Below the pieces are notes generated by a model, which made no database searches, had not been told where the DNA came from, and saw nothing but the letters and a program-made list of their open reading frames with translations. Positions 4,190 through 38,692 of a stretch of DNA of 42,094 nt are shown in pieces (position 1 is the stretch's first letter; each line of letters starts with the position of its first letter). The stretch lies in the IMG/VR virus record IMGVR_UViG_2648501187_000001. The stretch is one strand, 5' to 3'. This DNA is from an uncultured virus (IMG/VR IMGVR_UViG_2648501187_000001). Lineage: Duplodnaviria > Heunggongvirae > Uroviricota > Caudoviricetes. The translations under genes and the position numbers were made by a program.

Positions 4190-5038
4190 TCAGCCGATGT
4201 TGCCGAGCAGTCGGGCGGCGAGCCGGTAGCGGCGGTCCATCCCGCGCGCCGCCGTCCCCGGATCCGCCTCCTCGCCCATATGCGCGTCCGTGTCCTCCAA
4301 AAGGATCCGCTCCCGTTCCGGATCGAGCCCGTAGCGGCCGGCGAGCGCACGGGAATACTGTCCCACGCCGTCCCCCTCCGCGATGCGTTCGCCCAACGCG
4401 TCCCATTCCTTCTCGTCCGCCAGGGCGAGCATGTTGTCGCGCCGGACCTGCTCGTTGAGCTGGCGGGCTTTGGCGAGCATGTAGGCGGCCGCCTCCCTGG
4501 TGCCGGAGATCTCCTTGCCGCGTTTCTCCTCATAGGCGCGGATCTCGGCCGGATGCCTCCGTCGATGCCGTTCGAACGCGTCGATCGCGTCCACATGCTT
4601 CTTCGACGGTTTCGGCTCCTGCCTCAACCGTTCGATCTCCGCGTCCACCCACCGGTCGAGTTCGCCGAATTCGGGATCCCGTTCGCGTTGCAGGTCGCGG
4701 CGGGCGAGCATGAACGCGGCCGCCTCCCGGTCCGACGAGATCGGGTCGCGGCGTCGGTCGACGAAAGCGCCCACCTCGTCCGCATGCCCCGCCCGCCATC
4801 GGTCGAACGCGGCGGCCCACCGGCGGGTCGTGCGGTGTCTGACGTCCCGTTCCTCCAGTTCGAGCAGCCGACCGTAATGCCCCTCCATGAGGGAGACGAA
4901 CCGGGCGTGCCCATCGTCCGTCACGGGCGTGGGCGCGGCGACGTCATCCGCGCCCGCGCCCGTGTTTTTCGCCTCGTATCGGCCGCCTTCGGGCGTGCCC
5001 TTCGGCTTGTGGCTCCTGTTGTTCCTGTCCACGGTCAT
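4190..5038 (-). CDS. Leader-family protein 1 (helical, charged cargo); RBS displaced by an IS insertion
   Basis: Starts MTVDRNNRSHKPKGTPEGGRYEAK...DDVAAP. Confidence 0.75.
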   Translation of the reverse strand: MTVDRNNRSHKPKGTPEGGRYEAKNTGAGADDVAAPTPVTDDGHARFVSLMEGHYGRLLELEERDVRHRTTRRWAAAFDRWRAGHADEVGAFVDRRRDPISSDREAAAFMLARRDLQRERDPEFGELDRWVDAEIERLRQEPKPSKKHVDAIDAFERHRRRHPAEIRAYEEKRGKEISGTREAAAYMLAKARQLNEQVRRDNMLALADEKEWDALGERIAEGDGVGQYSRALAGRYGLDPERERILLEDTDAHMGEEADPGTAARGMDRRYRLAARLLGNIG

Positions 5039-6427
5039 CTTGTTTGGCTTGTGGAGACTCCGCCCTTCAGGGCGGGGAGAAAACAAGCCTCCCTCCTTTC
5101 ACAATTCGTAATGGCATAATGTGAGATATGGTCAAGCGCAGGGAATTCCAGCGGGCATACAGGTTCCGCTTCTACCCGACGCCCGAACAGGAGAACCTGC
5201 TCAGGCGTACGCTCGGCTGTGCGCGCCTCGTATACAACAAGGCATTGGAAGCCCGTAGCGAGGCATGGACCAGCGAGAGGCGCAACGTGTCCTATTCGGA
5301 TACGAGCAGCATGCTCACCGGCTGGAAGAAGACCGACGAACTGTCGTTCCTCAACGACGTGTCCTGCGTCCCCCTGCAACAGGCCCTGCGCCATCTGCAA
5401 CGGGCGTTCTCCGGCTTCTTCAAACAGGAAAACGCCTACCCCGTGTTCAAGAAGAAGACGCACGGCGGTTCCGCCGAGTTCACGCGAAGCGCGTTCAATT
5501 GGAACGGCCGCGAGCTGCGTCTCGCCAAAATGAAGGAACCGTTGTCCATCGTCTGGTCGCGGACCCTGCCCAAAGGCGCGGAACCCTCCACGGTGACCGT
5601 GAGCCTCGACCCCGCGCAGCGCTGGCATGTGAGCATCCTCGTCAAGGAACGCATCACGACCCTTCGCGGGAAAAGCAACGCCATCGCGCTCGACCTCGGA
5701 GTGGATTCGTTCGCCGTCACCGACCAGGGCGCCGTGATAGAGAATCCGAGGCATTTGAAGAAAAGCCTCGAAAGCCTCGCACGGGCGCAACGGTCGCTCA
5801 GCCGAAAATGGAAAGGAAGCAACAACCATCGCAAGGCACAGCTGAAGGTGGCCCGCATCAACGCGCGCATCGCAGACCAACGCCGTGACTTCCTGCACAA
5901 GCTGTCCACGAACATCATCCGCGACAACCAAACGGTGATCATCGAGGACCTTGCCGTCAGGAACATGACCAGACGATGCAAGCCGAAAACCAATCCCGAG
6001 CATCCCGGCCAGTACCTGCCCAACGGCCAATCCGCGGAAAGCGGACTGAACCGCAGCATACTGGACGCCGGATGGGCCGAGTTCCGACGTATGCTCGAAT
6101 ACAAGAGCGAATGGTACGGACGCCAGCTGATCGTGATCGACCAGTATTATCCGAGCACGCAACTGTGCTCCATGTGCGGGGCCAAGACCGGCCCCAAGAC
6201 GCTCGACGTCAGGGAATGGACATGCCCTGCCTGCGGCTGCCACCACGATCGTGACGGCAACGCGGCAAAAAACATCCTCGCCGCAGGACTTGCGGTCAGC
6301 GTCTGCAAGGACGGCAGAATCAAAGACGGCCTCTCGCAAGAGTAGCCTCCTTTCCTTTTGCCAAACGAACAGAAAACCCGGGGCGCGAACCCCGGAATCT
6401 CCCGCCTTCAGGCGGGAGAGAAGTCAA
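5039..6427 (+). mobile_element. IS200/IS605-family, IS1341-type (tnpB-only) insertion sequence
   Basis: Left end GAGA+ctccgccc-ttca-gggcgggg following target TCAT; right end GAAT+ctcccgcc-ttca-ggcgggag...TCAA (6424-6427); removing it restores RBS-ATG of the flanking gene. Confidence 0.9.
5128..6345 (+). CDS. tnpB: RNA-guided endonuclease TnpB
   Basis: AYRFRFYPT HTH, RuvC motifs ALDLG / IIEDL / HDRDGNAA, zinc ribbon CSMC...CPAC. Confidence 0.95.
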   Translation: MVKRREFQRAYRFRFYPTPEQENLLRRTLGCARLVYNKALEARSEAWTSERRNVSYSDTSSMLTGWKKTDELSFLNDVSCVPLQQALRHLQRAFSGFFKQENAYPVFKKKTHGGSAEFTRSAFNWNGRELRLAKMKEPLSIVWSRTLPKGAEPSTVTVSLDPAQRWHVSILVKERITTLRGKSNAIALDLGVDSFAVTDQGAVIENPRHLKKSLESLARAQRSLSRKWKGSNNHRKAQLKVARINARIADQRRDFLHKLSTNIIRDNQTVIIEDLAVRNMTRRCKPKTNPEHPGQYLPNGQSAESGLNRSILDAGWAEFRRMLEYKSEWYGRQLIVIDQYYPSTQLCSMCGAKTGPKTLDVREWTCPACGCHHDRDGNAAKNILAAGLAVSVCKDGRIKDGLSQE

Positions 6428-6445
6428 GACGCCGTTCCCCTTTCC

Positions 6446-7945: not shown

Positions 7946-8416
7946 ATGACCGTGGACAGGAACAACAGGAGCCACAAGCCGAAGGGCACGCCCGAAGGCG
8001 GCCGATACGAGACGAAAGGCGGCGCCACGGGCCCGGATGACGTGAGGCCGCCCACCACGGCCGAAAACGCGTCCGACATCCTCGACCGGGCACGGGAATA
8101 CGGCCTCGACTGGGATCTGCTCGCCGGACGAAGCGAGAACGGGCGCAGCATCAACCTGGACGCGCCGGGTCACGGCGACCGGCGCGTCCACGCGGAACCC
8201 GACGGGCACGGCGGCTGGGACCTCGTCTACCGGGAATGGAGGAAACCCACATTACGCGAATACAACGGGCCCGGCATCCACCCGTTCGGCGTATTCGGCT
8301 GGATGGCCGACCGGATCAACGGGAACGCGGAGACATGGATCCCCATCCGTCGCGGGCACGCCGCCAATGACGACCAGCTGCTCGACGCCGCCGCCGACTG
8401 GTGCGGGACCGACTGA
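7946..8416 (+). CDS. Leader-family protein 2
   Basis: GGAGGA RBS; MTVDRNNRSHKPKGTPEGGRYETK...DDVRPP. Confidence 0.8.
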   Translation: MTVDRNNRSHKPKGTPEGGRYETKGGATGPDDVRPPTTAENASDILDRAREYGLDWDLLAGRSENGRSINLDAPGHGDRRVHAEPDGHGGWDLVYREWRKPTLREYNGPGIHPFGVFGWMADRINGNAETWIPIRRGHAANDDQLLDAAADWCGTD

Positions 8417-10599: not shown

Positions 10600-11532
10600 A
10601 TGAGCACAGACAGGAACAACCGGAGCCACAGGCCGAAAGGCCTGCCCCCACGCGTGGCCGGAACATTCGAACCGGAAGCATGCGGCGGCCACGAGACCGG
10701 CATACGACCGCCCGAACCACCCGACCGCATCGAACTCATGGAACTCGAACGCCTCGCCCGCACCATGCCCGCACCACGGCCCGGCGACATCGCATGGCGT
10801 TTCGGCACGCACACCATCCCCCAGCAGGCCATCGACATGCGCTACGGGCGCGACGACATACGCCTCCAACGGCTCGTCATCCTCACCCACGCGGACGAGG
10901 ACACGCGCCGCATGCTCGCCGCACGCATGCACGACCACGATTGGATTCGCAGCCACGCCACACCCCTGTTCAAAGACCGCGCATGCATCATCATCCCCGA
11001 ACCGGACCCCTGGGACGAACCCGGCCGGCCGGACACACGCCCCGTCTGGCCGCACCCCATCGACACGCGCATGATCGCCGAAGACTGCGCCGCCCACCTC
11101 GACATCCGACGCTCATACACGCCCACGCGCGTCAGCCGCACGGGGAACGAAACCCACGTCGAATGCGTGGACGACACGACCCACACGTCCCGCTCCTACC
11201 GGACCGGGACGAACATCGCGCATCTCCCCGACGGAGCCTGCATCGAACATGCGGCCGACGGACGATGGCATGTCGTCCACGACGATCCGCCGCTCCCCCC
11301 GCGCCCCGCCGACAGGCCGCACGCACGCGAAGACACGCGCCCGCACGACCCCCGACCCGACACGGAACCGGAACCGGAACCAAACCCGGATCCGCCCGGG
11401 CGATCCGACGAAGCGGACAGGCCGCGACGCCCGGCCTCCGACCCGCGCATGCGCCGCGCCTGGATCCGGTTCCTCACCGGACTGTTCCAGGGCGTGTCCA
11501 GCATCATCCGCGAATCCAGGCGCGCCCGCTGA
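10600..11532 (+). CDS. Leader-family protein 4
   Basis: MSTDRNNRSHRPKGLPPRVAGTFE...GIRPP; GCATA box 10 nt upstream; Pro-rich linker and amphipathic C-terminal helix. Confidence 0.75.
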   Translation: MSTDRNNRSHRPKGLPPRVAGTFEPEACGGHETGIRPPEPPDRIELMELERLARTMPAPRPGDIAWRFGTHTIPQQAIDMRYGRDDIRLQRLVILTHADEDTRRMLAARMHDHDWIRSHATPLFKDRACIIIPEPDPWDEPGRPDTRPVWPHPIDTRMIAEDCAAHLDIRRSYTPTRVSRTGNETHVECVDDTTHTSRSYRTGTNIAHLPDGACIEHAADGRWHVVHDDPPLPPRPADRPHAREDTRPHDPRPDTEPEPEPNPDPPGRSDEADRPRRPASDPRMRRAWIRFLTGLFQGVSSIIRESRRAR

Positions 11533-15306: not shown

Positions 15307-16629
15307 TTGACGGTCGACAGGAACAACAGGAGCCACAGGCCGAAGGGCCTGCCCCAAGGGTATGCGGGCACGTTCGACGCGGCCGGCCCGCAGACGGCCG
15401 GCGACGACGTCGCCCCGCCGTCGGCCGGCGGACATCGGCTGGACGATGCGATGCTCACAGCCGAAACATACATCGCTATGGATCCGGATGTAGCCGACTG
15501 CGCGGGATACGCCGCCAGACGATTGGATGAGCTCATCGCCCGTCCGGCGAAGCCGGGCGAAACCGATGACATGCCGTTGATCATTGAAAACCTGCGATAC
15601 GATCCGCAGGCCCCGGGCGGCTCCCATGCCGACTATGTCGCCGATCACATACAGAACGCTTATGACGGTATCCCAGTGAAAGCCTATGATTGCGCGCGAT
15701 TGGAACAGGAAACCCGACAGCATATCCTCGAGACCGCGTTGGATCCGAACCGGGAGCTCCGCAATCTCGGATTGGAGCCCGTACGGCCAGACGAACACAC
15801 GAACGCATACGCGGGACCGCAGCCGGAGGATTGGGGCGGGGATTACGACGAGGAGACCGCCGAACGCCGCCACGAAGCCGCATGGAAAGGCGCCCAGACC
15901 AAACAGGCCCGATATGCTGCGGCAACGGAGGAACATCTGAATCCGTTGGACGATGAGATGCGCGACCTGTACAGGAAGAACGTCGACCGTGGACTGATCA
16001 ACGGCAGCGCGTTCGATGACAGGATGGCGTTCGCCGACACGCTGCGCGAACTCCAGGAGGATGGCTGGAACCCGCAGGCGGGGCGCGAATACCGGAAATC
16101 CAAGGAGTTCAGGAAACTGGAGAAACAACTGCTGGACGGGAGGAAACCGACCCGACGCTACCGGCAGCTGCGCGACGCGTTGTGCGACGACGAACACGAG
16201 TACCGGGCGTTCATGGCCGCGGATCCGGACGTGTTCGACCCGGACGAGAGAATCGTGAAGCCGTTCGCCGGGCTCGGTCCGGACGTGGGGCAGGCGGCCA
16301 TGCTGCGCCTGGCCGCCAAACACCGGGGCGTCACCGGGGCGCTCGCCCTGGCACGCTGGGATCCGGGCATCGAATACGTGACGGCGGACGCGAAGACCCA
16401 CACGTTCCGCATGGAGCATGACCGGCCGGGAATCGGGTATTACAGCGACGGCTCCACCTATCCGATCGGGCACACGGTCATCACGGCGAACGGGATCAAA
16501 CCCGCGAGCGTGATGAGCTGGATACACAACGAGAAGCCGGGCACGCCGGAATGGGAGGCGCGGACCCGCACCCGGTTCGAGGAGTCGAACGGCGGCGAAT
16601 GGAAGCCCGCCGAAACCGACGTAATCTAA
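15307..16629 (+). CDS. Leader-family protein 5 (440 aa, acidic cargo of unknown function)
   Basis: GAAAGGAG RBS, TTG start, TVDRNNRSHRPKGLPQGYAGTFD...DDVAPP. Confidence 0.8.
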   Translation: MTVDRNNRSHRPKGLPQGYAGTFDAAGPQTAGDDVAPPSAGGHRLDDAMLTAETYIAMDPDVADCAGYAARRLDELIARPAKPGETDDMPLIIENLRYDPQAPGGSHADYVADHIQNAYDGIPVKAYDCARLEQETRQHILETALDPNRELRNLGLEPVRPDEHTNAYAGPQPEDWGGDYDEETAERRHEAAWKGAQTKQARYAAATEEHLNPLDDEMRDLYRKNVDRGLINGSAFDDRMAFADTLRELQEDGWNPQAGREYRKSKEFRKLEKQLLDGRKPTRRYRQLRDALCDDEHEYRAFMAADPDVFDPDERIVKPFAGLGPDVGQAAMLRLAAKHRGVTGALALARWDPGIEYVTADAKTHTFRMEHDRPGIGYYSDGSTYPIGHTVITANGIKPASVMSWIHNEKPGTPEWEARTRTRFEESNGGEWKPAETDVI

Positions 16630-16677: not shown

Positions 16678-17214
16678 ATGGAAGAAGAATCCGTTCGGCT
16701 CGCTATCCGGCTCAAAGATGATTCGGTGTGGAAGATTTCCAATCTTTCCGGCACCGTCATACCCTACAAGGCAGCCGCCGGCATCGTCCACCACGGAAAG
16801 GGTCTTGCAGGCCGTCCCGTCGAGGAGACGGTGTTGTTGTACCGTCTGTCGAACGCATTGGAGACGACCATCGCCAATGCAGATCATCCACTTGATGAAG
16901 ACCTGTTCGATTGCTTCAAGGAGCAGTTGGGGGCTTCGAAGGACATTCCCCTGCCGGATCACACCAATCCGACGGAGGAAAACGCCACGGACATGTTTAT
17001 GGAGCTTTGGAATCAGGATAGGATCCTCGCCGCCGTGTGCGCGAACCATCTTCTCGTCGAAAGCGGCATCGGCCTGTTCGGAACCTACCCCGACCAGCTT
17101 CCGGCATTGGAATCCGCCATAGGGGATTCCAAGGAAGCCGCCATCTCCTATATTCACGACAATGCGGTAGAGCTTCTTCCCGGAGGCCTCACCCGGAACA
17201 GGATGCCACAATGA
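16678..17214 (+). CDS. Degenerate Fic-fold paralog lacking the catalytic loop
   Basis: AAGGAGG RBS; aligns by eye with the downstream Fic protein (LAIRLKDDSVWK / LAKRRTIDLLWK; ANHLLVESGIGLF / ANHCLIHDGVGIF). Confidence 0.6.
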   Translation: MEEESVRLAIRLKDDSVWKISNLSGTVIPYKAAAGIVHHGKGLAGRPVEETVLLYRLSNALETTIANADHPLDEDLFDCFKEQLGASKDIPLPDHTNPTEENATDMFMELWNQDRILAAVCANHLLVESGIGLFGTYPDQLPALESAIGDSKEAAISYIHDNAVELLPGGLTRNRMPQ

Positions 17215-18035
17215 CCATGGATGCGAACAACCGGAGTCATCGTCCCGCCGGACTGCCACAAGGCGTGGCCGGCACGTTCGATACGACCGTATCCGGAGTG
17301 GATGATGCCGATGTCGCCCCTCCCATGGGGGCGGGAACCGTTTCCAATGCGGAGGCATGCGTCAATCTGGCGAAACGCCGCACCATCGACCTGCTGTGGA
17401 AGACCGCGAGCATCGAGGTCAGGGGTCTCACGTTCCCCGATACGCGCGACGTGTTCAAGGGCATCACGCCCGGGGATGCGAGGGCCAGGGATGTGATGGT
17501 GCTGAACAATCTGAAGCACGCCTGGCAGTTCCTTTTCGACAACACGGATTGGCCGGTCGACTGGCAGTATCTTTCCGAATACAACCGGCTTGTAGGTGAC
17601 GGGCTGGAGCCCTCCCCCGGCAGGCTGAGGAACGACATGGTCACCATCGGAGGCACCAGATATGTTCCCCCTGTTCCCTCGTATGATGGGGTCAGGGATC
17701 AAATCGGAAAGGATCTCGGGCTTGACGATCCGGAGGATAGGGCGTTGAACCTGTTCGCATCCATCAGCCGGGGCCAATGGTTCAGCAACGGCAACAAGCG
17801 GACTTCGGCGATGGCCGCCAACCATTGCCTCATCCATGACGGGGTCGGCATATTCGCATTGCCTCCGGAACGGATGGATGACGAGTTCAGGGACAGGCTC
17901 ATCGGCTTTTACGAAAGCGATGATCGCGGACCGTTCATCGACTGGCTGAAATACCATGCGGTCGGACGTCTGGTGGACAATGGGCTGACTTCGGCGCAGA
18001 AAAACGGGGATGATCCGATCCACGACGATATGTGA
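17211..18035 (+). CDS. Leader-family protein 6: Fic/Doc domain
   Basis: MTMDANNRSHRPAGLPQGVAGTFD...DVAPP; Fic-like motif QWFSNGNKRTS; flap PGRLRNDMVTIGGT. Confidence 0.85.
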   Translation: MTMDANNRSHRPAGLPQGVAGTFDTTVSGVDDADVAPPMGAGTVSNAEACVNLAKRRTIDLLWKTASIEVRGLTFPDTRDVFKGITPGDARARDVMVLNNLKHAWQFLFDNTDWPVDWQYLSEYNRLVGDGLEPSPGRLRNDMVTIGGTRYVPPVPSYDGVRDQIGKDLGLDDPEDRALNLFASISRGQWFSNGNKRTSAMAANHCLIHDGVGIFALPPERMDDEFRDRLIGFYESDDRGPFIDWLKYHAVGRLVDNGLTSAQKNGDDPIHDDM

Positions 18036-22688: not shown

Positions 22689-25600
22689 ATGATCAGATTC
22701 GAATACGAGTACCCCGTCCATGTGAAGACCCGGGCGGGGGGCAGCGTCGACTTCGATCCGGCGAACAACGGCAGCCACCGGGCTCTACTCGACCGGCAGA
22801 TAGCGAAATGGCAGGCCGGGCATCCGGAGGCCAAGGCCGCCCGCCTCGAGTTCATCGACCGGGACCGGCATGTCGCCGTCCTCGTCGACCGGCAGTCGTC
22901 CAGCGTCGACATGCGCGACGACTCCAGCCTCGAAATCAACCTGAGCGCCGAACATTCGAAACCCAGCAAGGGCGCCGAGGTGCAGGCCGTATACGAGACG
23001 AAATACCCCGGATACCGGCTCACCGTGTTCCACCCGTACGAAGGCAAGGCGCTCCTCGAACGGCTCACGGACGCGCAGGCCACGGCCCGCGCCCAGATCG
23101 CCACCGAACTCGGCCTGCACGACTGGGATCTCAGGGTCACGCCTTTGGAGGACGGCGGATGGAAGGTCCTCCTCGACGAGGGCATCACCTACCAGCCGTC
23201 CAAAATGGACACGCGCATGGAGAAGGCCTGCCTGACCGTCGGCCGGCTCGGCTGGTGGTTTGACGCCGACCCCGACACCGGCGTCATCGAGATCCATCCC
23301 GGCGAGCCGCCCACCTTCCCCAAACTCGTCCCCTTCCCGTTCGACCGGATCGGCGACCCGACCGTCCGCGACAAGACCCCGTTCGGCATCCGACTGGCCC
23401 GCCCCGGCGAGACCGGCGAACCCGCGTTCGTCGACTGGACCCAATCCCTCGGCCTCCTTATAGCCGGATTGTCAGGTGGCGGCAAGGCTCTTCCCTTGGA
23501 TGCGCGTATCCCCGTGCCCGTCTCCGAACGCTTCCCCGCCGGCTGGGCTAGGAACCGGGACCTCAAAGAAGGCGATCCGGTGTACGGGCGCGACGGGCGG
23601 ATCATCCCCATCAAGGACTTCAGCGACGTGGAGGAGCTGCCCATCTACCGTCTGACCCTGTCCGATGGCCAGATTCTGGAATGCGCGGACAACCATCTGT
23701 GGGCCGTATCGGATTCCGTCATGCGCCAGGCCATGTCCGACGAACGAGGCCGGGAGCGACGCGAACAGACCATCCGGCTCGTGAATCGTTTGCGTGACGA
23801 AGCGGCCACGGTCGGGGATGGCGTGAGAGCCAACCGACGCCATATCGCCATCGACCACGGGCTGCCCCCTAATGTGACCCAGAACTGCGCGGAACGGCAT
23901 GATCTGGTCGGGCCGGATGGCCTGTGCGACGAGGCGGAACTGCTGCACGCCATCGCCGACGAACGCGAATCCTACGTCATGCCCGGCGGCGTATGGGCGA
24001 ACACCGTCGAAACGATCCTCACTGCACGCGAGATATCGGAGAATCCGAAACCTCACGGCAAATGCTGGGGTATCCGCCTTGCCAATCCCATCGAGAATTC
24101 GGACGCCAACCTGCCGCTCGGCCCGTATTTCCTCGGCACCTGGCTTGGCGACGGCATCTCCAGTGCCGGGGCCATCTGTCTCAACGATGACGACGAACCG
24201 CATATGCAACCCGACATTCTCTCCAGTCTGGGTGGTTCGATCCGTCGCGGAAAAGTTGAACACGGGGCGCATACCTGGTTCTATGACATGGATGACGGGC
24301 GCATCCTCGTAACCGAACTCAAAAGGCTCGGCCTGTACATGGACAAGCACATCCCCGCCGTCTATCTGCGCGCCTCCAAGAGCCAGCGCCTCGCCCTGCT
24401 CCAGGGGCTCATGGATACGGACGGTTCGGTTTCCAGTCGCGGATCATGCGAACTGTGCTTCACCAATCAGCGGCTTGCCGAAACCGCATTGGAGCTCATC
24501 CGCTCCCTGGGCATCGCCGCCGGCATGCACTCCGGACGGGCGGGCTATACAAAAGACGGCGAACGTGTGGAGGCCGGTATCCGGTATCGGATCCGTTTCA
24601 CCACCTCCAAACCCGTGTTCCGCTTGCCCCGCAAACTGGCACGGCTCAAGACCGACACCCGTTCCACGCAGGATTGGCTGTACATCACGTCCTGCGAGCC
24701 GACGGGGCGCACGGAGCCGGTCCGCTGCCTGAACGTGGCGACCGACGATCACCTGTTCCTCATGGGCGGGTTCGTGCCCACGCATAACAGCGTCACCATC
24801 AATGACGTGACCACGTTGGGCATCGGCACGGGCGCGGAACTGTACGTGATCGACCATTCCACGAAGGCCACCGACTACTACTGGTGCCGGCCGTGGATCG
24901 CGGACCGGGGCTGGGGCGCGGATTCGCTGCTCCAGACCGCCGGACTGTTGAAATGGCTGCTCGACGACATCGAGGACGGCGGCGAGCGCGCCAGGGCGTG
25001 GAAGAGCCACGGCTGGCAGAACTGGTACGACGACCTGTCAGACGAGGACAAGAGACGATACCCGTACCGGCTGATCGTCGTGGACGAGCTGTCCCAGCTG
25101 ACGGTCGGCGCGAAGGATGCGACCAGCCTGCCGAAGAACCCGCTGCCGCCGGTCATGGAGAAGATGTTCGAACAGCAGGTGAAGGCGCTCATCCTGTCCA
25201 CCCTGATCCGCATCCTTCAGATCGGCCGAGCCTATGGCTACCGGGTGGTGGTCGCCACCCAGATCGCGTCGTCGACGACGGGCATGCCGCCCGCGTTGCG
25301 CGGCAACCTGGGCAACAAGGTCATCATGGGCGCGAAGGTCAACGACGCGCAGAAGAACCTGATCTTCAACATCGCGAAGGACGTGCCCGACATTCCGGCG
25401 AACGTGATCGACGAGGGCGTGTCCAAGGGCGCGGGCCTGAGCGAGATGGAGGGGCAGCCGCCCTACGATTTCAAGAGCTCGTTCCCCATGCTTGGGCATC
25501 ATGCGGGCGTGGCGGCGCTCGGCAAGGCTTTGGCCGAACGGATCGGCCTGCCCGACGGGATCGGCATGGACGAATACCTCGACTCCCTGGACAAGGACAC

Positions 25601-25880
25601 GCCTTCGAACCCGGAGTTCGAACAACGGGTCATGGAACGCATCCGGTTCCCCGAGGCGGAATCGTATCTGCGTTTCCCGTTCCTGCAGGCCATCAAGGAC
25701 AAGTGGGATGAAAGCCTCGACGAATACGGGGGCGGCCCGGCCGATGCCGGATCCGGGGGGAACGGGGATGACGGCACCGCACCCGCCGGCCGACCGGTCG
25801 CACCGGCCGCCTCCGGCCCGGAACCGTCCGGCCCGCTCATGGACGCGGCCGAACTGGCGCGCATCATGCGCCGGGGCTGA
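22689..25880 (+). CDS. FtsK/SpoIIIE (TcpA-like) DNA translocase or coupling ATPase, intein-containing
   Basis: Walker A GLSGGGK|S split by the intein; Walker B LIVVDE; GRAYG..VVVATQ; 629 aa after splicing. Confidence 0.85.
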   Translation: MIRFEYEYPVHVKTRAGGSVDFDPANNGSHRALLDRQIAKWQAGHPEAKAARLEFIDRDRHVAVLVDRQSSSVDMRDDSSLEINLSAEHSKPSKGAEVQAVYETKYPGYRLTVFHPYEGKALLERLTDAQATARAQIATELGLHDWDLRVTPLEDGGWKVLLDEGITYQPSKMDTRMEKACLTVGRLGWWFDADPDTGVIEIHPGEPPTFPKLVPFPFDRIGDPTVRDKTPFGIRLARPGETGEPAFVDWTQSLGLLIAGLSGGGKALPLDARIPVPVSERFPAGWARNRDLKEGDPVYGRDGRIIPIKDFSDVEELPIYRLTLSDGQILECADNHLWAVSDSVMRQAMSDERGRERREQTIRLVNRLRDEAATVGDGVRANRRHIAIDHGLPPNVTQNCAERHDLVGPDGLCDEAELLHAIADERESYVMPGGVWANTVETILTAREISENPKPHGKCWGIRLANPIENSDANLPLGPYFLGTWLGDGISSAGAICLNDDDEPHMQPDILSSLGGSIRRGKVEHGAHTWFYDMDDGRILVTELKRLGLYMDKHIPAVYLRASKSQRLALLQGLMDTDGSVSSRGSCELCFTNQRLAETALELIRSLGIAAGMHSGRAGYTKDGERVEAGIRYRIRFTTSKPVFRLPRKLARLKTDTRSTQDWLYITSCEPTGRTEPVRCLNVATDDHLFLMGGFVPTHNSVTINDVTTLGIGTGAELYVIDHSTKATDYYWCRPWIADRGWGADSLLQTAGLLKWLLDDIEDGGERARAWKSHGWQNWYDDLSDEDKRRYPYRLIVVDELSQLTVGAKDATSLPKNPLPPVMEKMFEQQVKALILSTLIRILQIGRAYGYRVVVATQIASSTTGMPPALRGNLGNKVIMGAKVNDAQKNLIFNIAKDVPDIPANVIDEGVSKGAGLSEMEGQPPYDFKSSFPMLGHHAGVAALGKALAERIGLPDGIGMDEYLDSLDKDTPSNPEFEQRVMERIRFPEAESYLRFPFLQAIKDKWDESLDEYGGGPADAGSGGNGDDGTAPAGRPVAPAASGPEPSGPLMDAAELARIMRRG
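23487..24788 (+). mobile_element. Ala-1 (class-3-type) intein with LAGLIDADG homing endonuclease, 434 aa
   Basis: Begins ALPLDARIP, block B NHLW, LAGLIDADG motifs LGTWLGDG and LQGLMDTDG, block F VRCLNV, ends PTHN|S. Confidence 0.9.
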
Positions 25881-29553: not shown

Positions 29554-29633
29554 CTTTACATTATTGTAAGGCCCCGGCCCCGGACTTTACAATATTGTAA
29601 AGCCTCACCTCCGACCTTTACAATATTGTATAG
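29554..29633. repeat. Three palindromic CTTTACAATATTGTAAAG-type repeats at 31-bp period (iteron-like)
   Basis: Copies start at 29554, 29585 and 29616. Confidence 0.85.
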
Positions 29634-29653
29634 TTTTCCGGCCCGTTTTGTAT

Positions 29654-29930: not shown

Positions 29931-29975
29931 GCCCCGGAATGCATACGCGCCCCGGGGCCGGCATAGCCGCGCCGC

Positions 29976-30803: not shown

Positions 30804-30842
30804 GAGCATGGCGAAAACGCAACCGACCGGAGGGAGGCCGTC

Positions 30843-31892: not shown

Positions 31893-31908
31893 GAAAGGCA
31901 GCGTCATC

Positions 31909-32367
31909 ATGGTCATGGACAGGAACAACAGGAGCCACGCGCCGAAGGGCACGCCCGGCGGGGGACGTTTCGAACCGAAGGGAGGGGACGCCCCGGCGGA
32001 TGATGTGACGCCGCCCGCATCCCGCCCCGACCCGCATGATCTGGCCGCCATCTTCGACCGGCCGGACCTGGCCCGCCAAATCGACTTCACGCTGGCGGAC
32101 GGCGGCCGGGTCAGCGGGTACGCGATGGACTGCGAACGCCTTCCCCGCGAGCATGTGCCGGACGGCTGGCACGTGTACGCGATCATGGAAAGCGAATCCG
32201 ACGACGACGATGCGGACATCATGACGATCCGCGAGAACACGCGGGTGAACCATCGCATGGACTTCGCCACCGACCGCGACCTGACCGATGTCATCGACGA
32301 CCCGGAATTGGAGAACGTGGCGGACTGGGGGTTCACGGACCGGACGCTCGCCGACGACCTCGCCTGA
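31909..32367 (+). CDS. Leader-family protein 8 with an LPD28-like domain
   Basis: MVMDRNNRSHAPKGTPGGGRFEPK...DDVTPP; ERLPREHVPDGWHVYAI...TIRENTRVNH. Confidence 0.75.
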   Translation: MVMDRNNRSHAPKGTPGGGRFEPKGGDAPADDVTPPASRPDPHDLAAIFDRPDLARQIDFTLADGGRVSGYAMDCERLPREHVPDGWHVYAIMESESDDDDADIMTIRENTRVNHRMDFATDRDLTDVIDDPELENVADWGFTDRTLADDLA

Positions 32368-32421
32368 CATGGAAGCCGCGATACGCCGAGACCGTCGGAA
32401 ACAGGCCCCGGGAGGGGCGCC

Positions 32422-32700
32422 CTAGCCGGCGATCTCGGCGAAGAACGCGTCCGGATCGTCCACGACCCACACGTGGAAGCCGCGTGATTCGAGTTTCGCG
32501 AACATGGCCGCCTGGCTGGCCCGGGGCCGGCCGCCCGGCCGTTTCAATTCCACGAGATACAGCCGTCCGCCGGGCATGAACAGGAGCCGGTCCGGCACGC
32601 CCAGCCGTCCGGGCGACACCCATTTCAGGGACAGTCCCCCATGGCGTCTCGCCAGAAGGTTGAACCGGCGTTCCACCGTGTTCTCCCTCACCGCCGCCAT
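32422..32700 (-). CDS. VRR-NUC domain nuclease
   Basis: REN.VE, KWVSPG..GVPDRL, VELKRPGG. Confidence 0.9.
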   Translation of the reverse strand: MAAVRENTVERRFNLLARRHGGLSLKWVSPGRLGVPDRLLFMPGGRLYLVELKRPGGRPRASQAAMFAKLESRGFHVWVVDDPDAFFAEIAG

Positions 32701-33107
32701 CCGAACCCCTTCCGCGCGTCGGGCGCGTCCGGCTCGACGGGGAGCATGCGGATCAGGCGCGCCCGTTCCGGAAAGCCGGCCGCCTCCAGCACGCGCGCGT
32801 CCAGATCCGCGCCGAGCGTGCGCAGCGTGTCCGCGTCCAGATCGGTCCGGGCCGCGAGCACGCGGCGCACGCGCGCATCCCGGTCATGGGCGAGCGTGGA
32901 CATCAGCGCCGCGTCCAGGCCGGGCCGGGCGGCCACGCGGGCGCGCACGCAGGCCGCCGGATCGTCCGCCAGACGCTCCACGACACGGTCGGGCAGCGGC
33001 ATGCCCGCCGCGTGCGCGCGCACCACCGGATTCGGGTCGAACGCGGCCCGACGCGCGTCCCCCGACCCGTCCAGCAGGGCCAGGACCCTGTCATGCCAAT
33101 CATCCAT
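32688..33107 (-). CDS. HEAT/LRV-repeat protein
   Basis: Repeats LADDP..VR..VA and LAHDRD..VR..LA; ATG 9 nt after GGAACGCATA. Confidence 0.7.
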   Translation of the reverse strand: MDDWHDRVLALLDGSGDARRAAFDPNPVVRAHAAGMPLPDRVVERLADDPAACVRARVAARPGLDAALMSTLAHDRDARVRRVLAARTDLDADTLRTLGADLDARVLEAAGFPERARLIRMLPVEPDAPDARKGFGWRR

Positions 33108-33196
33108 GCGGCCGCGTATGCGTTCCGGCGCATAGACGCATACCGACGCGCATGGGGCCGCCACCGGTCCCATGCGACGATTCGAAAAGGAGAACC

Positions 33197-35605
33197 ATGG
33201 ACAAACGAATCAGCAGGACCCTGGCCGCGACGCTCGCCGCGGCCACCCTGGCCGGCGGGACGGCCGCACCCGTCTGGGCCGACCAGCCGACGGCGGGCGG
33301 GGCGGCGACCCGCACCGGACAGCGCGCGCCCATCGCCGGCCTGGCCGGCGTGACGGCCCGGTGGAGGGACGCGCAAGGCGGCACCGGCCCCGTCACGGGA
33401 TTCGATCCGGCCAACGGGAGGGGAGGCGACGTGCCCGCCGGCACGACCGCGGTCACCCTTGACGGCCTGCCCGACGGATGGACCCAATCCGTCTCCAAGG
33501 ACGATCCGCTGACCGTCACCCTCGCCGCGCCCGATCAGGCCCAGTCCCGCACCTACACGTTCCGCGCCGTGTCCGCCGCCGACCGGTTCAGGGAATCATT
33601 GAAGAAGGCCGAAACGATCCGCGACGACAGGGACGCGACGGACGCGTACGACCGGGCGAGCCTCGACGCGCTCGGCAAGGCGATCGGCGACGCGGGGAAA
33701 CTGGACGCGGACACCGCCGGCGACCAGGCACTCGACAAGGCCGCCGACGGCCTCGACCGGGCGGTCGCGGGGCTGCGCGTCGTCAACTGGACGTTCCACG
33801 GCCGGACCCTCGCCTACGACGAGTCGAAGACATGGACGATCGCCGACCCGTTGGACACGCTCCCCGGCACGGACGAGAAGATCACGGGAGGCAGCACGTC
33901 CAACCGGATCGAAGTGCCGCCCACGGCCTCCAAACCCGACGTCAGGAACACGCTGCCCGGCGTCACCGAAACGAATCAGGACCTGACCGCGTCCCACGGC
34001 GGCGAATCGTTCCGCATCCCCATACGCATCGTCCAGGGCACGGAGATCACATTGAAGGACGGGACCCGTTTCACCGGTCCGGAGAACGGGTCCGAATGGA
34101 CCGTCACCGACACCGGCCACCGGCTCGACAAGGACAACATGCCCGACACGGACAAGGTGGAACTGTCCGACGGATCGACGCTCCCCGTCACCTGGGGCAA
34201 GGCCACGCTCGACCCGTCGGGCGCGGCCGGCCCCGTATGGACCATGAGCGGGAAGGCCACGCGCACGCTCGACAACGGGCAGACGCTCACCGTCGAACTG
34301 ACCGCCAGCCGCGCCTGGAACGCGAAACTCAGCATCGGCGTGGAGCATCGGACCGCCGACGGGAACACGACCCTCATCCCCGGCATCGACCTGGAGGACG
34401 CGACCGCCGCCGACACCCCGTTGGACGTGACCCTGCCCACGCTCCCCTACGCCGCGGCCGGCGACCAGTACACGCCCGCCGTGACCAGCGGCGACGACGC
34501 GACGGTCGCCATGAACGCCACCGGGCTCGGCGACGACGGGATGCGCGTGTTCACCGGCACCGTCAAGGCGACCAGGACGGACGGCACCGTCGTGACCCGC
34601 AGGTTCACGATCCGCCAGCCGTTCGACAAGCCGTCCAGGACCGTCGACGCGCCGGACGCCGCCCTCGACGGGCTGCTCGTCAACGGCAGGCCCATCCAAG
34701 GATGGGATCCCGACATCCTCGAATACACGATCACCGCGGGCGAGGACGACAAGGTCACGGTCAGCCCCAGGGCGAAGGCCGGGCAGACGGTGAAGGCGTC
34801 CGACACGACCCTGACCGCGCACAGCACCGTCCAGCATTGGACGGTGACCGGCCCGGACGGCGGGAACCGTACGTACACGGTCACGCTCGTCCGCGACCAC
34901 AGGACCCCCACCGCGGACGAGGCGTTCAAACCCTCCGATCCGAAGGACACGGGCGGCACCCAGGAGGCTCCCGGCCCGGACACGGCCACGCTGAAAAGCG
35001 TCGGATGGACGAAGGACGGCACGTACCACGCGGAGAAGGGCGACGAATACCTGATCCCGGAGGGCGGCTCGTTCGCCTACGAATCGTACCTGGGCCAGAT
35101 CGTGAAGATCACGCCGGGCCGCGACCACGGCATGACGTGGAAATACCGGATCGGGGTGCTCGCCCCCGACGGCGTCACCTACCGGACGCGCACCGTCACG
35201 GTCACCTACCTGACGGAGGCGACCCACAGGGCGGGCCTGACCGGGTTGAGCGTCGACGGGCGCGACGTGGACGGGTTCTCGCCGGACAGGCTCGAATACA
35301 CGGTCGGGGTCGCCAATCCGGAACGCTACGTGGTCACCCCGTCGTGGGACAAGCAGACGGGCATGAGCGTCACCAAGCATGTGGACGGCGCGGACACGAC
35401 GCTCACCGTGACCAGCGCCGACGGGCTGACATCCGTCGTCTACAGGGTGCACGTCGAATACGATGCGGGGCTCGCCGCCACCGGCGCGGGCGTGACGGGC
35501 GTGATCATGATCGCCGTCGCCGCCGTCCTGGCGGCCGCCGGCACATGGTTCGCGTCCCGGCATAAGCCGCATGATCCGGACGGGGACACGGACGCGACCA
35601 TGTGA
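33197..35605 (+). CDS. Sortase-anchored surface protein (FIVAR-like and cadherin-like beta-sandwich repeats), putative mating adhesin
   Basis: AAGGAG RBS, signal peptide, repeats LDGLLVNG..GWDPDILEY and LTGLSVDG..GFSPDRLEY, C-terminal LAATG + TM + basic tail. Confidence 0.8.
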   Translation: MDKRISRTLAATLAAATLAGGTAAPVWADQPTAGGAATRTGQRAPIAGLAGVTARWRDAQGGTGPVTGFDPANGRGGDVPAGTTAVTLDGLPDGWTQSVSKDDPLTVTLAAPDQAQSRTYTFRAVSAADRFRESLKKAETIRDDRDATDAYDRASLDALGKAIGDAGKLDADTAGDQALDKAADGLDRAVAGLRVVNWTFHGRTLAYDESKTWTIADPLDTLPGTDEKITGGSTSNRIEVPPTASKPDVRNTLPGVTETNQDLTASHGGESFRIPIRIVQGTEITLKDGTRFTGPENGSEWTVTDTGHRLDKDNMPDTDKVELSDGSTLPVTWGKATLDPSGAAGPVWTMSGKATRTLDNGQTLTVELTASRAWNAKLSIGVEHRTADGNTTLIPGIDLEDATAADTPLDVTLPTLPYAAAGDQYTPAVTSGDDATVAMNATGLGDDGMRVFTGTVKATRTDGTVVTRRFTIRQPFDKPSRTVDAPDAALDGLLVNGRPIQGWDPDILEYTITAGEDDKVTVSPRAKAGQTVKASDTTLTAHSTVQHWTVTGPDGGNRTYTVTLVRDHRTPTADEAFKPSDPKDTGGTQEAPGPDTATLKSVGWTKDGTYHAEKGDEYLIPEGGSFAYESYLGQIVKITPGRDHGMTWKYRIGVLAPDGVTYRTRTVTVTYLTEATHRAGLTGLSVDGRDVDGFSPDRLEYTVGVANPERYVVTPSWDKQTGMSVTKHVDGADTTLTVTSADGLTSVVYRVHVEYDAGLAATGAGVTGVIMIAVAAVLAAAGTWFASRHKPHDPDGDTDATM

Positions 35606-35613
35606 TCCGGATA

Positions 35614-35673
35614 CCCATACACGCGGGAAGGCCGGATGCGGNNCCCCGCATCCGGCCTTCCCGCGCGTATGGG
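35614..35673. terminator. Long GC-rich hairpin between convergent genes
   Basis: cccatacacgcgggaaggccggatgcgg / ccgcatccggccttcccgcgcgtatggg; NN in the loop. Confidence 0.65.
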
Positions 35674-35683
35674 GAAAACCGGC

Positions 35684-35965
35684 CTAGGCGGCCGGGTCGA
35701 GGGCCGCGGCCCGCCTGGTGGCGAACATGCCCGCACGGCACAGGATCGACGCCTGGACGGGCGTCAGGCCGCCGCCGAACCGTCCCATGAGACGGAACGC
35801 GTCCTCCATGAGAATCCGGTCCGTTCCGGGCAGTGTCTCCAGGCATCTGGCGGCACGGGCGAACACTTCCGCATCATGCTCCAGCATGGCGTACGCGTCC
35901 ATCATGCGCGCCCCGCCCTCACGGCTGATGCTCTCCGCCGCGCGATCCCAATCCATTCCGGTCAT
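35684..35965 (-). CDS. Hypothetical protein
   Basis: 93 aa; ATG 9 nt after GGAACGCATA. Confidence 0.6.
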   Translation of the reverse strand: MTGMDWDRAAESISREGGARMMDAYAMLEHDAEVFARAARCLETLPGTDRILMEDAFRLMGRFGGGLTPVQASILCRAGMFATRRAAALDPAA

Positions 35966-36001
35966 GCCCCCGTATATGCGTTCCGGCCACCCGCCTGTCG
36001 C

Positions 36002-36988
36002 TCAGCCATGCCAATGCCCGCGCATGCGCTCCGGCAGCCGCCATGAGGCGGCGTTCGGCAGGCCGAACACGCGGCCGAGCCTGTCCATGTCATGTCCCGT
36101 CCACCCGTCCAGGGGGACGGGAATGCCGGGTGAGGGCGTCCACCCGTCCGTCATGAAACCGCCGGCCATGACGGACGCCGCGTCGCCCGCATGCTGGCGG
36201 GAGCGTGCCGCGCACAAGCCGTCCAACCGTTCCAGGATCCCCGTGTTCCCGTCGCCGCGGCCGGCCGACAGCCACAGGACATGCGTGTTCCGGCAGGCCG
36301 GATGGTCGAGCACCCTGTCCCACCGGCGGAACTTCGCCTCCAATGACTGTCCGGTGGACGCGGTCAGCTCCACGCATACGAGCAGGCCCTCGCCGATGAG
36401 CGCCAGATCGGGGCCGCCATGGCCCATGATCGGATCATCGCAGATCCGGTCGAACCGGCACCACGCCTCCCCCGCGGTCAGCCACCCGTCGCGCCGGGCG
36501 CGGACGGCGAGCCCCGTGCAGATCAGGTTGTGCCGGTCGTACTGGCGTTGCCCGCGCAACGGCCCCGGCCCGATGTCCGCGATTTCCGCGGGCGTGAGGC
36601 CCAGCCGGCGCAGTTCCGGATCGATCGCGTGGTGGACGGGCAGGCGGACGGCCATGAAGCCCGCGTTCTTCGGCCCCCATCCGCCGCGCCCGTTCACGTT
36701 GATGGGGAAGCCCAGGTCGATGAGGCGCATGCCGGCGAGCATCATCCACAGCGTGGACCGCGGGTCGGCGGGCAGCCGCGGGTCGAGCTCGTGGAGTTGG
36801 CTTGTCTCGCAGGTCCTGTACGAGCGGATGAGCGCGAGCGCCGCCCCGGTGACGGGGGCATGCCGTTCCAGCCATGCGCGCGCCCTCTCCCGGTCGGGGA
36901 GCCATGCGGGCGGGTCGGCCACGCGGCTGTCCCACCAGTTGAGGGCCGATCCGGCCGACCACCATGATTCGTCGAAAGCGTCGAACAT
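36002..36988 (-). CDS. Replication-relaxation (Replic_Relax-like) wHTH + PD-(D/E)XK protein
   Basis: HNL...W..GE...GPDLAL...VELTAS...K pattern. Confidence 0.55.
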   Translation of the reverse strand: MFDAFDESWWSAGSALNWWDSRVADPPAWLPDRERARAWLERHAPVTGAALALIRSYRTCETSQLHELDPRLPADPRSTLWMMLAGMRLIDLGFPINVNGRGGWGPKNAGFMAVRLPVHHAIDPELRRLGLTPAEIADIGPGPLRGQRQYDRHNLICTGLAVRARRDGWLTAGEAWCRFDRICDDPIMGHGGPDLALIGEGLLVCVELTASTGQSLEAKFRRWDRVLDHPACRNTHVLWLSAGRGDGNTGILERLDGLCAARSRQHAGDAASVMAGGFMTDGWTPSPGIPVPLDGWTGHDMDRLGRVFGLPNAASWRLPERMRGHWHG

Positions 36989-37068
36989 GAGGTCCGGCTA
37001 TGCGGGTCGTCCGCGTACGGCGTGTCGCCTTGCGCCGGCCGGGATGCGGGGTGGTGGCGAAACGCATG

Positions 37069-37090
37069 GTATGCGTCCCGGGACGCATAC
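37069..37090. promoter_or_regulatory. 22-bp perfect palindrome with GCATA boxes on both strands
   Basis: gtatgcgtcccgggacgcatac, just before ATG 37099. Confidence 0.65.
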
Positions 37091-37098
37091 GCGCCCGC

Positions 37099-38136
37099 AT
37101 GTCAGACGATAACCTTGCATGCACTCCCGCACAATGGGAGCGGATCATCAGCCGATACGCCGACCCGGCCCGGTCGAACTCGCCGGCGGGCCGGATCGCC
37201 GCCCTGCTGCGCGACGACGCGCGCGCCTCCGACCTGGTGCGCGAATGGGTCGAGGACCAGGCCATGCGATGCATGGCGAAGGGGCAGACGGTCACGCCCA
37301 CGCTGCTGACCATGATCTGCAAACGGTGCAGCAAGGAGGCGATCCTCCACAGGGAGCTGGGCGTGAGCGTCAAACTGCTGCGCGCCGGCGCCGCCTATGA
37401 GAAACGTCTCGCCGCATACCGTAACGATCATGCGTCGGGGCGTCCCCCGCGCGCCGTCAGGGAACGCCTGTGGGACGAGGCGGTGGACGCGCATATCCAT
37501 GGTCAGATGGAGCGCGGCGTGAGCAGCATGGTGTTCCTGCCCTACCATGACGGGCGCAACTCGCGTCCGGGCTCGTCGAACCTGCTCGCATGCGGCGGCC
37601 TGCCGGAATGGGAGGCGCTGTTCGGGTCGAAGCGGCGTCGTTTCGCCCCGTTGGAGGATGTGGACGAGGATCATGATCCGGCGCTCATGGACCATACGGG
37701 CGGCATGCCGTTCGAGGTGACCGCGGAATGGCTCGAACGGCATGGGATCACGCCCGCCATGCTGAACCGTCTGACCGACACGGAGCTGGCCGTATTGGGC
37801 GTGGACGTCAGGTCCGCGCGCCTCGAATCCGCGGGCGGCGTCCTGGACGGGGTGGCGGGCCGCCTCGACCTCATATTGGACGATCCGCGGGCGAGCCAGG
37901 CCCTGGCGGCCGGCCGGCCGATGCTGGGGGCCGTGGAGATCCTCCACTCGCTGGGCATGGATGTGGGCATGATCCGGGCGGGCATGCGGCTCGGCCGCTG
38001 GTCGCGGGCCGGGGACGTGCACGATCCGGGCATGCTGCGCGCCGCATGGGACCGGATCCCGGGCCGTGGGGGCACGTACGACGAGTATCTGCGCGCCGTG
38101 TCCGACATTCTCGACAAGGCCCACGCCCTCGCATAG
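37099..38136 (+). CDS. Hypothetical helical protein, possibly a divergent sigma-70-like factor
   Basis: 345 aa; weak similarity to sigma regions 2-3 (WERIISRY...ASDLV; GRPP). Confidence 0.4.
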   Translation: MSDDNLACTPAQWERIISRYADPARSNSPAGRIAALLRDDARASDLVREWVEDQAMRCMAKGQTVTPTLLTMICKRCSKEAILHRELGVSVKLLRAGAAYEKRLAAYRNDHASGRPPRAVRERLWDEAVDAHIHGQMERGVSSMVFLPYHDGRNSRPGSSNLLACGGLPEWEALFGSKRRRFAPLEDVDEDHDPALMDHTGGMPFEVTAEWLERHGITPAMLNRLTDTELAVLGVDVRSARLESAGGVLDGVAGRLDLILDDPRASQALAAGRPMLGAVEILHSLGMDVGMIRAGMRLGRWSRAGDVHDPGMLRAAWDRIPGRGGTYDEYLRAVSDILDKAHALA

Positions 38137-38179
38137 CGAGGCGATGAACGTTGTTTTCCCGAGGGAAAGGAGACCGGTC

Positions 38180-38692
38180 ATGACCGTTGACGCGCATGGG
38201 AGAAGCCACAGGCCGTCCGGACTGCCCCAGGGGTATGCGGGCACGTATGACGGGGGCACGGGCGCGTCCGGGGGCATGGACGTGACGCCGCCCTCCTCCT
38301 ATTACGACGGGCGCATGGGCGAGGCGGAACGCGCCGACCGGCCGGCCCCGATCCGAAACTCCATCCGGCCGAAACCCTCGCATGCAGGACAATTGCGCCG
38401 TCTTCTGGGCGACGATCCGGTCGAGGGAAGCGTTTCGAGCGTCGCCGGATCGTACCCGGGCCCGAACGCGCGCCTGTACGCCGACTTCGTGCGTCATCCG
38501 CGCCGCCGCACCTACACGCTGGAGGGCGAGACCATGACCCGCTCCCAGGCCCGCGACTACGCGCGCGGCATGCTCGTCGAATCGGCGCGCAACGATGCCG
38601 GGGCGTGGGGCGACGGGTATGATCCGGACGCCATGGCCGAACAGGCAGGCGACTGGTTCGACAGGACATATCCCATGCCGAAACGACGTTGA
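38180..38692 (+). CDS. Leader-family protein 9
   Basis: AAGGAGA RBS; MTVDAHGRSHRPSGLPQGYAGTYD...DVTPP. Confidence 0.8.
   Translation: MTVDAHGRSHRPSGLPQGYAGTYDGGTGASGGMDVTPPSSYYDGRMGEAERADRPAPIRNSIRPKPSHAGQLRRLLGDDPVEGSVSSVAGSYPGPNARLYADFVRHPRRRTYTLEGETMTRSQARDYARGMLVESARNDAGAWGDGYDPDAMAEQAGDWFDRTYPMPKRR

Follow-up and report, generated by a model that had tools for sequence, protein, structure and literature searches.

The window analyzed in this work is the whole 42,094-nucleotide stretch of DNA deposited as an uncultured virus (IMG/VR record IMGVR_UViG_2648501187_000001). Nine of its genes begin with one common leader of approximately 40 residues, as seen from the translation of all nine starts: 5038 on the minus strand and 7946, 8455, 10600, 15307 (a TTG start), 17211, 30843, 31909 and 38180 on the plus strand. 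The original prediction, made from the letters of the sequence, had named exactly these starts and proposed that the leader is an export tag for a set of effectors delivered by conjugation. The nine genes are listed below with protein length in amino acids (aa) and the score of the leader profile.

4190..5038, minus strand: leader gene 1, 282 aa; leader at approximately 4919-5038, GGRYE; 69.4 bits; body of unknown function
7946..8416, plus strand: leader gene 2, 156 aa; GGRYE; 68.9 bits
8455..9093, plus strand: leader gene 3, 212 aa; VAGTYD; 65.8 bits; body unknown
10600..11532, plus strand: leader gene 4, 310 aa; VAGTFE; 71.7 bits; body unknown
15307..16629, plus strand: leader gene 5, 440 aa; TTG start; YAGTFD; 75.5 bits; body found elsewhere with a second tag, tag B
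17211..18035, plus strand: leader gene 6, 274 aa; Fic/DOC body; 74.0 bits
30843..31892, plus strand: leader gene 7, 349 aa; leucine-rich-repeat-variant body; 69.9 bits
31909..32367, plus strand: leader gene 8, 152 aa; LPD28-like body; 63.2 bits
38180..38692, plus strand: leader gene 9, 170 aa; body family with the motif PP..YYDG.M; 70.6 bits

Common leader of nine genes in the window

The leader is approximately 38-43 residues long and has a constant layout, in which a basic first half of the form M-x-x-D-x-N-G/N-R-S-H-K/R-P-x-G-x-P is followed by a G-x-aromatic-acidic core, a glycine-rich spacer and an acidic second half ending in proline. The nine-gene alignment is invariant at M1, D4, R8, H10, G14, P16, G19 and P36, and the net charge is +1 to +3 at residues 1-17 and -1 to -4 at residues 18-42. 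Both predicted subtypes are seen in it, GGR(Y/F)E in four leaders (5038, 7946, 30843 and 31909) and (Y/V)AGT(F/Y)(D/E) in five of the nine. The ending (D)D(V/I)xPP, which had been described as usual, was found in the exact form DD(V/I)xPP in five of the nine leaders, the remaining four having only near variants (DDVAAP, ADVAPP, MDVTPP and TGIRPP). A likeness of the acidic half (DDV.PP, DDDLDF) to the C-terminal tail of SSB was considered and set aside.

When the leader profile was compared with the six-frame translation of the window, exactly these nine starts were matched with 63.2-75.5 bits, the next best match reaching 6.8 bits, and neither stumps nor frameshifted copies of the leader were detected by this search. 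The motif D...R[ST]H...G.P occurs nine times in the window versus a mean of 0.04 and a maximum of 1 in 50 shuffles. After the leader the proteins had been described as diverging completely, and the nine bodies fall into nine separate families (BLAST single-linkage clustering, E<=1e-5). An Rfam scan gave no family at gathering score, and a search of the ESM Atlas with the leader gave a best score of 0.87 with no named family above 0.79. Neither a hydrophobic core nor a twin-arginine motif could be read in the nine leader sequences, in agreement with the original prediction; a Sec or Tat signal peptide was ruled out as no leader has a hydrophobic stretch or an RR motif.

Structures of two leader proteins were modelled with AlphaFold2 using family alignments. 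In the 15307 model residues 1-43 have pLDDT of 26-34 and no secondary structure, the folded body beginning at residue 45. In a 424-aa leader protein encoded beside the coupling-protein gene of the related genome G001 (see below) residues 1-56 have pLDDT <50, whereas the body is confidently modelled and helical (pTM 0.72). The leader is thus predicted to be intrinsically disordered. Foldseek gave nothing at E<=0.001 for either modelled body, and the best hit of a wide VIA-align search (Z 6.7, on helical repeats) lies within the stated noise of the tool.

Distribution of the leader and of its cargo families

A leader profile of 41 positions was searched against 1.84 billion cluster representatives at E<=0.001 and yielded 144 matches, 51 of them at E<=1e-10. 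Ten of the 144 were judged spurious, being long proteins built of repeats, which match the profile partially at many places and lack the leader motif. The strict N-terminal position expected for the leader was observed among the 134 accepted matches: it lies at residues 1-3 in 127 of them. In another six it lies 6-28 residues in and has a Met of its own, which probably reflects miscalled starts; in the single internal case (P0093, residue 347, ahead of a body of the 38180 family) the arrangement looks like a fused gene call. The position at residues 1-3 in 127/134 also rules out the class of C-terminal signals (VirB/VirD4-type, BID and XVIPCD).

The leader is rare among species-representative genomes. 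It was matched in one of 61 genomes in a survey of relatives and in one of 401 in a survey of the class that scored 18 first-look candidates per genome. The survey of the family found it in four of 236 genomes, two with clear matches (G001 with 12 copies and G108 with nine) and two marginal (E ~7e-5). Two IMG/VR records labelled provirus carry 13 (G002) and eight (G662) copies. Named leader proteins, all annotated as 'hypothetical protein', come from Bifidobacterium sp. SO1, B. felsineum and B. myosotis, with one marginal match from Curtobacterium. Comparison of a 6-row leader alignment with genome contigs gave one weak locus, on a contig of a Flavobacteriaceae metagenome-assembled genome (55% identity over 20 residues), and tblastn of a leader against phages gave three matches only, with E of 3-4. 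In one gene of G662 (G662:C1:12696-13487, L068) the second half of the tag stands twice in tandem, as GTPNAGRFAPKAGAGDDDDL and then GGTAWGGRYVPKAGAGDGDM.

The diversity of cargo that had been anticipated was also found: BLAST single-linkage clustering of 120 bodies of at least 60 aa, taken from the database, the window and the G662 proteins, gave 50 families behind the leader.

Selection acting on the leader

In an alignment of the leaders with 80 upstream bases conservation begins at the start codon, the DNA upstream being unrelated. The codons at invariant residues were compared in 20 leaders from the window, G001 and G662; five different codons are used for R8, three for P16 and two each for G14, D4 and H10. 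Because the upstream DNA is unconserved and the invariant residues use several codons, the main constraint is on the peptide. Two patterns that the original prediction regarded as incompatible with a peptide tag, conservation at the DNA level only and tolerance of frameshifted copies, were not seen: synonymous codons are in use, the DNA upstream is unconserved and the six-frame search of the window found no frameshifted copy.

At position 5 all 12 leaders with Arg there, diverged copies of G662 included, use the codon AGG (e.g. 7958-7960 and 15319-15321). It is improbable, in our estimation, that the tag is regulatory, i.e. that the peptide or its coding RNA sets the amount of protein, be it as a degron that a protease adaptor recognises, as a shared region for the control of translation or through an activating cleavage near DD(V/I)xPP. 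The uniform AGG across diverged elements hints at some RNA-level constraint; in addition the disordered tag terminates in an acidic-Pro hinge that is conserved, and several cargoes are potentially toxic. The variation of codons at most invariant residues and the unconserved upstream DNA nevertheless mean that RNA control cannot be the main constraint, and neither the window nor the 78 scanned proteins of the G001 element yielded a protease family.

It is barely credible that the peptide is functionless and the shared 5' 120 bases mainly serve as homology tracts for the shuffling of bodies. Contigs from RNA libraries (three libraries from one sample of a related strain, which may hold DNA and carry no information on level or strand) cover 22653-39000, three leader genes included, bins 19100-21755 being uncovered in those runs. 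Some of them run from the 30843 leader into 7946 leader sequence (loose end 30914) or link the start region of 15307 to the 38180 leader (loose end 38204), as would be seen after recombination, and it is clear that bodies have exchanged their tags in the course of evolution. However, both joints may be assembly cross-joins, the 7946 and 30843 leaders sharing a run of approximately 32 identical bases. Against the shuffling of functionless tracts stand also the selection on amino acids, the identity of ~86-88% with many synonymous differences between the DNA pieces of leader paralogues, and the persistence of the peptide pattern in leaders as diverged as those of G662.

Conjugative elements carrying the leader

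The nearest genome, G001, was used as the reference for the context of the element. All of its 12 leader genes lie inside 94 kb of one contig, and the window matches this stretch with 94-99% identity, with insertions and replacements. The G001 element encodes a 1093-aa FtsK/SpoIIIE protein, TcpA-like, which matches the 'DNA translocase coupling protein' of PDB 6o1w (E 4e-4) and whose gene lies outside the part corresponding to the window, as well as a 1382-aa AAA_10 (VirB4-like) ATPase. The scan of 78 proteins of this region also revealed hydrolases (CHAP, NlpC/P60 and lysozyme-like), surface proteins (SpaA-type and Listeria-Bacteroides-repeat adhesins), ParA, DUF2637, Prim-Pol, orphan methylases and transposases. 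Host genes (HAD and RbpA) follow the element at ~1,245,900, and its G+C content is 63-71% versus ~58-62% past the right end. The clusters of leader genes (12 in G001, nine in G108, 13 in G002 and eight in G662) belong to large Bifidobacterium elements of T4SS type (T4SS, type IV secretion system), in line with the predicted confinement of the leader to conjugative-type elements.

Neither in the window nor in the 78 scanned G001 element proteins did a capsid, portal, protease or tail family turn up, and the terminase matches in the window fall on an intein within the ATPase encoded at 22689-25880. A phage capsid targeting sequence was therefore ruled out, there being no capsid, portal or prohead protease family in the window or in these 78 proteins.

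A block comprising coupling protein, nuclease, ParA and Prim-Pol is common to G662 and G001 with 35-50% identity. The tag of G662 has a diverged form, M..D.(N/K)GN(S/N)HKAAGRPDGGQFD.KAGQG.DDDL. In both elements a leader gene (424-471 aa) adjoins, in divergent orientation, the gene for the TcpA-like coupling protein (G001:C1:1145101-1149720 and G662:C1:84658-89394; 47% and 38% identity between the pairs).

Exchange of two unrelated tags on the same bodies

When the body of the 15307 protein (residues 45-440) was used as a query, 48 homologues were found. Fifteen of them carry the leader described above (tag A), 25 carry tag B, one has a third tag, MARNPQFEAKIRRDTDGRFANKP, one has a short A-like tag and six are cut at the N-terminus; those with names come from Bifidobacterium longum, B. 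breve or sp. SO1. Tag B has the pattern MVDSRKS.QAKQQRR..NGEFAEE...LPSGDTL and is also present in many copies per element, with seven, six and five genes in three IMG/VR records. It is located on 170-198-kb megaplasmids of the pMP7017 family, which has been shown experimentally to conjugate in the laboratory (PMC10832533). The match of the 15307 protein to pMP7017-type megaplasmids in tblastn begins only at residue 44, and in the G657 element the same body carries tag B and is 82.5% identical to the window protein from residue 44 on. The LPD28-like body of the 31909 protein stands behind tag B in G657, whereas in G662 it has a diverged form of tag A. In a further tag-B gene of G657 (start 92506) the body shares, by eye, the PP..YYDG.M motif of the 38180 family; tblastn gave no match at E<=1e-4.

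The two tags are not detectably related (probability of 1% in a profile-profile comparison with hhalign) and have a common build of a basic stretch, G-x-(F/Y)-(A/D/E), an acidic stretch and a proline. They are mutually exclusive per element, the copies of tag A and tag B numbering nine and none in the window, 12 and none in the G001 element, eight and none in G662, and none and seven in G657. Between the two lineages the conjugation proteins have an identity of only 22-32%, and both lineages occur in Bifidobacterium longum and breve. The tag B profile matched none of the 236 genomes of the family, yet the tag is common in IMG/VR contigs and megaplasmids.

On these sequence comparisons the tag is tied to the lineage of the element and not to the cargo. 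Because two unrelated tags stand on the same bodies within the same host species, the data point to a tag reader encoded by the element and not by the host. The binding of tags to lineages strengthens the reading of the leader as an address label more than any point of the original prediction. It also weighs against a regulatory role, as a protease of the host would have no need for unrelated tags within one species.

Lineage-specific tags with an element-encoded reader would be explained equally well by an intracellular docking tag that tethers accessory proteins, themselves never exported, to a hub encoded by the element; we regard this as the main rival reading, though a rather unlikely one. 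As hub one may think of the relaxosome, the partition complex, a chaperone or a scaffold, either in the donor or, once the proteins are expressed there, in the new host. Disordered short linear motifs are typical of docking peptides, and the conserved tagged protein whose gene adjoins that of the coupling protein in both G001 and G662 could be a structural partner and not a cargo.

FtsK-like ATPases as candidate readers

The window encodes one ATPase of the FtsK/SpoIIIE family:

22689..25880, plus strand: second FtsK/SpoIIIE-family ATPase, 1063 aa; soluble; intein-split; candidate tag reader

Its P-loop, GLSGGGK, is interrupted right after the lysine, at approximately residue 278, by an intein carrying a LAGLIDADG homing endonuclease, and no segment resembling a transmembrane helix was found in the protein. 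Homologues devoid of the intein are encoded in G657 and by 31 database relatives (572-642 aa). The intein-free G657 homologue of 639 aa matches Pfam FtsK_SpoIIIE (E 2.5e-5), and its gene stands directly after that of a 1135-aa coupling protein. Each element thus has two FtsK-like ATPases, a TcpA-like coupling protein and a small soluble one. The view that the protein of 22689-25880 is the coupling ATPase of the element had to be corrected accordingly: it is the second, soluble, intein-split FtsK-like protein, the TcpA-like coupling protein being encoded, in G001, outside the window. We regard both as candidate tag readers. Plasmid pCW3 has what we take to be the corresponding pair, TcpA and TcpB. 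TcpB is reported to be dispensable for DNA transfer (PMC6137059).

Cargo of the leader

Two of the cargo assignments made for the window passed the Pfam cut-offs: Fic (PF02661) in the 17211 protein with 26.5 bits (E 1.2e-5, cut-off 24) and LRV_2 in the repeat protein of 30843 with 36.1 bits (E 6.2e-9, cut-off 27). The 17211 protein also matches phrog_11900 over residues 51-247 (E 5.4e-23). For the LPD28-like cargo a match of the 31909 protein to LPD28 (PF18843) is present (E 3.9e-5), but its 23.6 bits are below the cut-off of 27, as are the 22.7 bits of a relative, P0017. The cargo described as a phage-like domain is represented by one PHROG match, the only family match of the 5038 body (phrog_34979), which is weak (E 2.2e-4) and leads to a family without a known function. 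The 7946 protein, with an unknown body, matched nothing in Pfam, NCBIfam or PHROG.

Outside the window 93 of the 134 leader proteins were scanned with Pfam, 41 proteins of <=128 residues being left out. Five of the 93 have a domain at E<=0.001: two Zeta_toxin, one pentapeptide repeats, one LPD28 and one LRV_2, the last two below the cut-off. The WXG100/LXG families of Pfam were absent from the nine window proteins and from the 93 scanned leader proteins, and the YxxxD/E motif was not searched.

Cargo of the types Fic, Zeta_toxin and pentapeptide repeats would fit invasion effectors. Toxin-type cargo (Fic, Zeta toxin) is easier to understand as acting on another cell than as tethered by a docking peptide, and approximately 50 cargo families with turnover resemble effector sets more than the subunits of one complex.

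Other features of the window

Two genes for cell-wall hydrolases lie ahead of the leader genes:

2204-2965, plus strand: CHAP cell-wall hydrolase, Pfam CHAP E 4e-23
2940-3650, plus strand: NlpC/P60 cell-wall hydrolase, Pfam NLPC_P60 E 8.5e-21

Such genes are usual in Gram-positive conjugation modules. Megablast of the segment 22000-32000 matched neither plasmids nor phages. A TnpB gene (IS200/IS605 family, 5128-6345), within the stretch 5039-6422, lies directly upstream of leader gene 1; in G001 it is absent at this place, the flanks being contiguous. The segment 18061-22646 has no blastn match in the G001 element, a G+C content of 57-58% versus ~65% around it and strong GC and AT skew, and its open reading frames have no family matches except for a weak Bax-inhibitor-like one. 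The intergenic region 29550-29960 contains all nine copies of TGTATGCAT in the window (0.16 expected), which form nested inverted repeats, and a CTTTACAATATTGTAAAG palindrome pair; a similar block of ~380 bases occurs in at least seven copies in the G001 element. The array could be an operator, an iteron array or a candidate origin of transfer (oriT).

Proposed role of the leader

The tag is modular, strictly N-terminal, selected at the protein level, clustered in T4SS-type elements and swapped for a non-homologous tag in a sister lineage. We give an even chance to the reading that it is an element-specific address tag by which soluble accessory proteins are taken up into the conjugation machine and delivered to recipients. 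A disordered N-terminal tag, specific to one lineage of large conjugative elements of Bifidobacterium, would mark a changing set of soluble accessory proteins (Fic, Zeta-toxin kinase, pentapeptide-repeat and LPD28-like proteins and many unknown bodies) for recognition by a protein of the element. The tagged proteins would then be loaded into a Tcp-like type IV secretion machine and would enter the recipient with the DNA or ahead of it, helping the element to become established. Solo LPD domains beside T4SS genes have been proposed as early-invasion factors (PMC5512222). We infer that a reader encoded by the element exists, that one of the two FtsK-like ATPases has this role and that the tagged proteins are exported.

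A more specific form of the address-tag reading is put forward tentatively, as a possibility short of an even chance. The tags would constitute an interchangeable system, in which each lineage has a non-homologous disordered tag of its own and a matching element-encoded reader, possibly the soluble FtsK-like ATPase, and exports fast-changing effectors of a single domain.

Several points weigh against delivery through the conjugation machine. To our knowledge the T4SS signals described so far are C-terminal or internal, not N-terminal. The link between tag and reader is one that we infer, and with 88 of the 93 scanned leader proteins lacking a Pfam domain the word effector is an extrapolation for most of the cargo. 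The leader protein beside the coupling protein has no recognisable fold, and the RNA-library contigs covering leader genes cannot prove their transcription. Finally, no tagged relaxase was found, which also favours the docking alternative; the only relaxase-like piece is a fragment of a TraA-like helicase in G001 (E 5e-8), with no leader match beside it.

If this more specific form, the interchangeable system, is true, it would provide the first N-terminal T4SS signal defined by sequence and, for Gram-positive conjugation machines, the first known signal of protein export; the second FtsK-like ATPase, dispensable in Tcp-type systems, would gain a function as well. Most leader cargo in these elements of gut commensals has no known function; were the tag an export signal, a profile of 40 residues would reveal every protein sent to new hosts. 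The tag could then serve as a handle for protein delivery between bifidobacteria, and the occurrence of two unrelated tags on shared bodies offers a way of finding the reader.

Comparison with known systems

The capsid targeting sequence of phage T4 (IPI-III, Alt) is a short N-terminal modular address peptide carried by unrelated proteins. These proteins travel with the DNA into the next cell; the sequence needs the prohead and is cut by the prohead protease. The leader is similarly short, N-terminal and modular, but no capsid, portal or tail family was seen in the window or in the 78 scanned proteins of the G001 element.

The C-terminal charged or BID-type signals of VirB/VirD4 systems and the Glu-rich signal of Dot/Icm are short, poorly structured, charge-patterned and read by the coupling-protein complex. 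They differ from the leader in being C-terminal and of low conservation, whereas the leader is N-terminal with eight invariant positions. XVIPCD is a C-terminal, folded module of approximately 120 residues in the bacteria-killing T4SS of Gram-negative bacteria and binds the all-alpha domain of VirD4. The leader in contrast is N-terminal, approximately 40 residues long and disordered by prediction, and is found in an actinobacterial conjugative element with FtsK-type ATPases. The two are alike in that, as described for antibacterial T4SS effectors of Xanthomonadales (PMC8740702), one conserved module is carried by unrelated effectors.

Transfer of proteins along with DNA is known from the F-type T4SS of pED208, which delivers PsiB, SSB, ParB and others to recipients; that system is Gram-negative, and the available parts of the sources report no sequence tag common to the transferred proteins (PMC8406263, PMC11288057). 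We found no published description of this leader or a similar one in the literature searched, supplements not covered, and in the available part of the transcriptome paper on pMP7017 (PMC10832533) the word 'N-terminal' occurs 0 times.

The tagged set resembles, in its content, the polyvalent proteins known from phages and conjugative elements and the solo-domain versions of these proteins (Iyer et al. 2017, PMC5512222), which likewise bring LPD28-like, Zeta-toxin and other conflict domains beside T4SS genes and which have been proposed to be delivered with the DNA. The available part of that source makes no mention of such a leader and describes many domains per polypeptide, whereas here there is one domain per gene, each with its own copy of the leader. 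The tagged set may be viewed as an 'unbundled' version of polyvalent proteins, which suggests that one delivery problem could have found two solutions, the polyvalent protein and the set of solo proteins with a tag.

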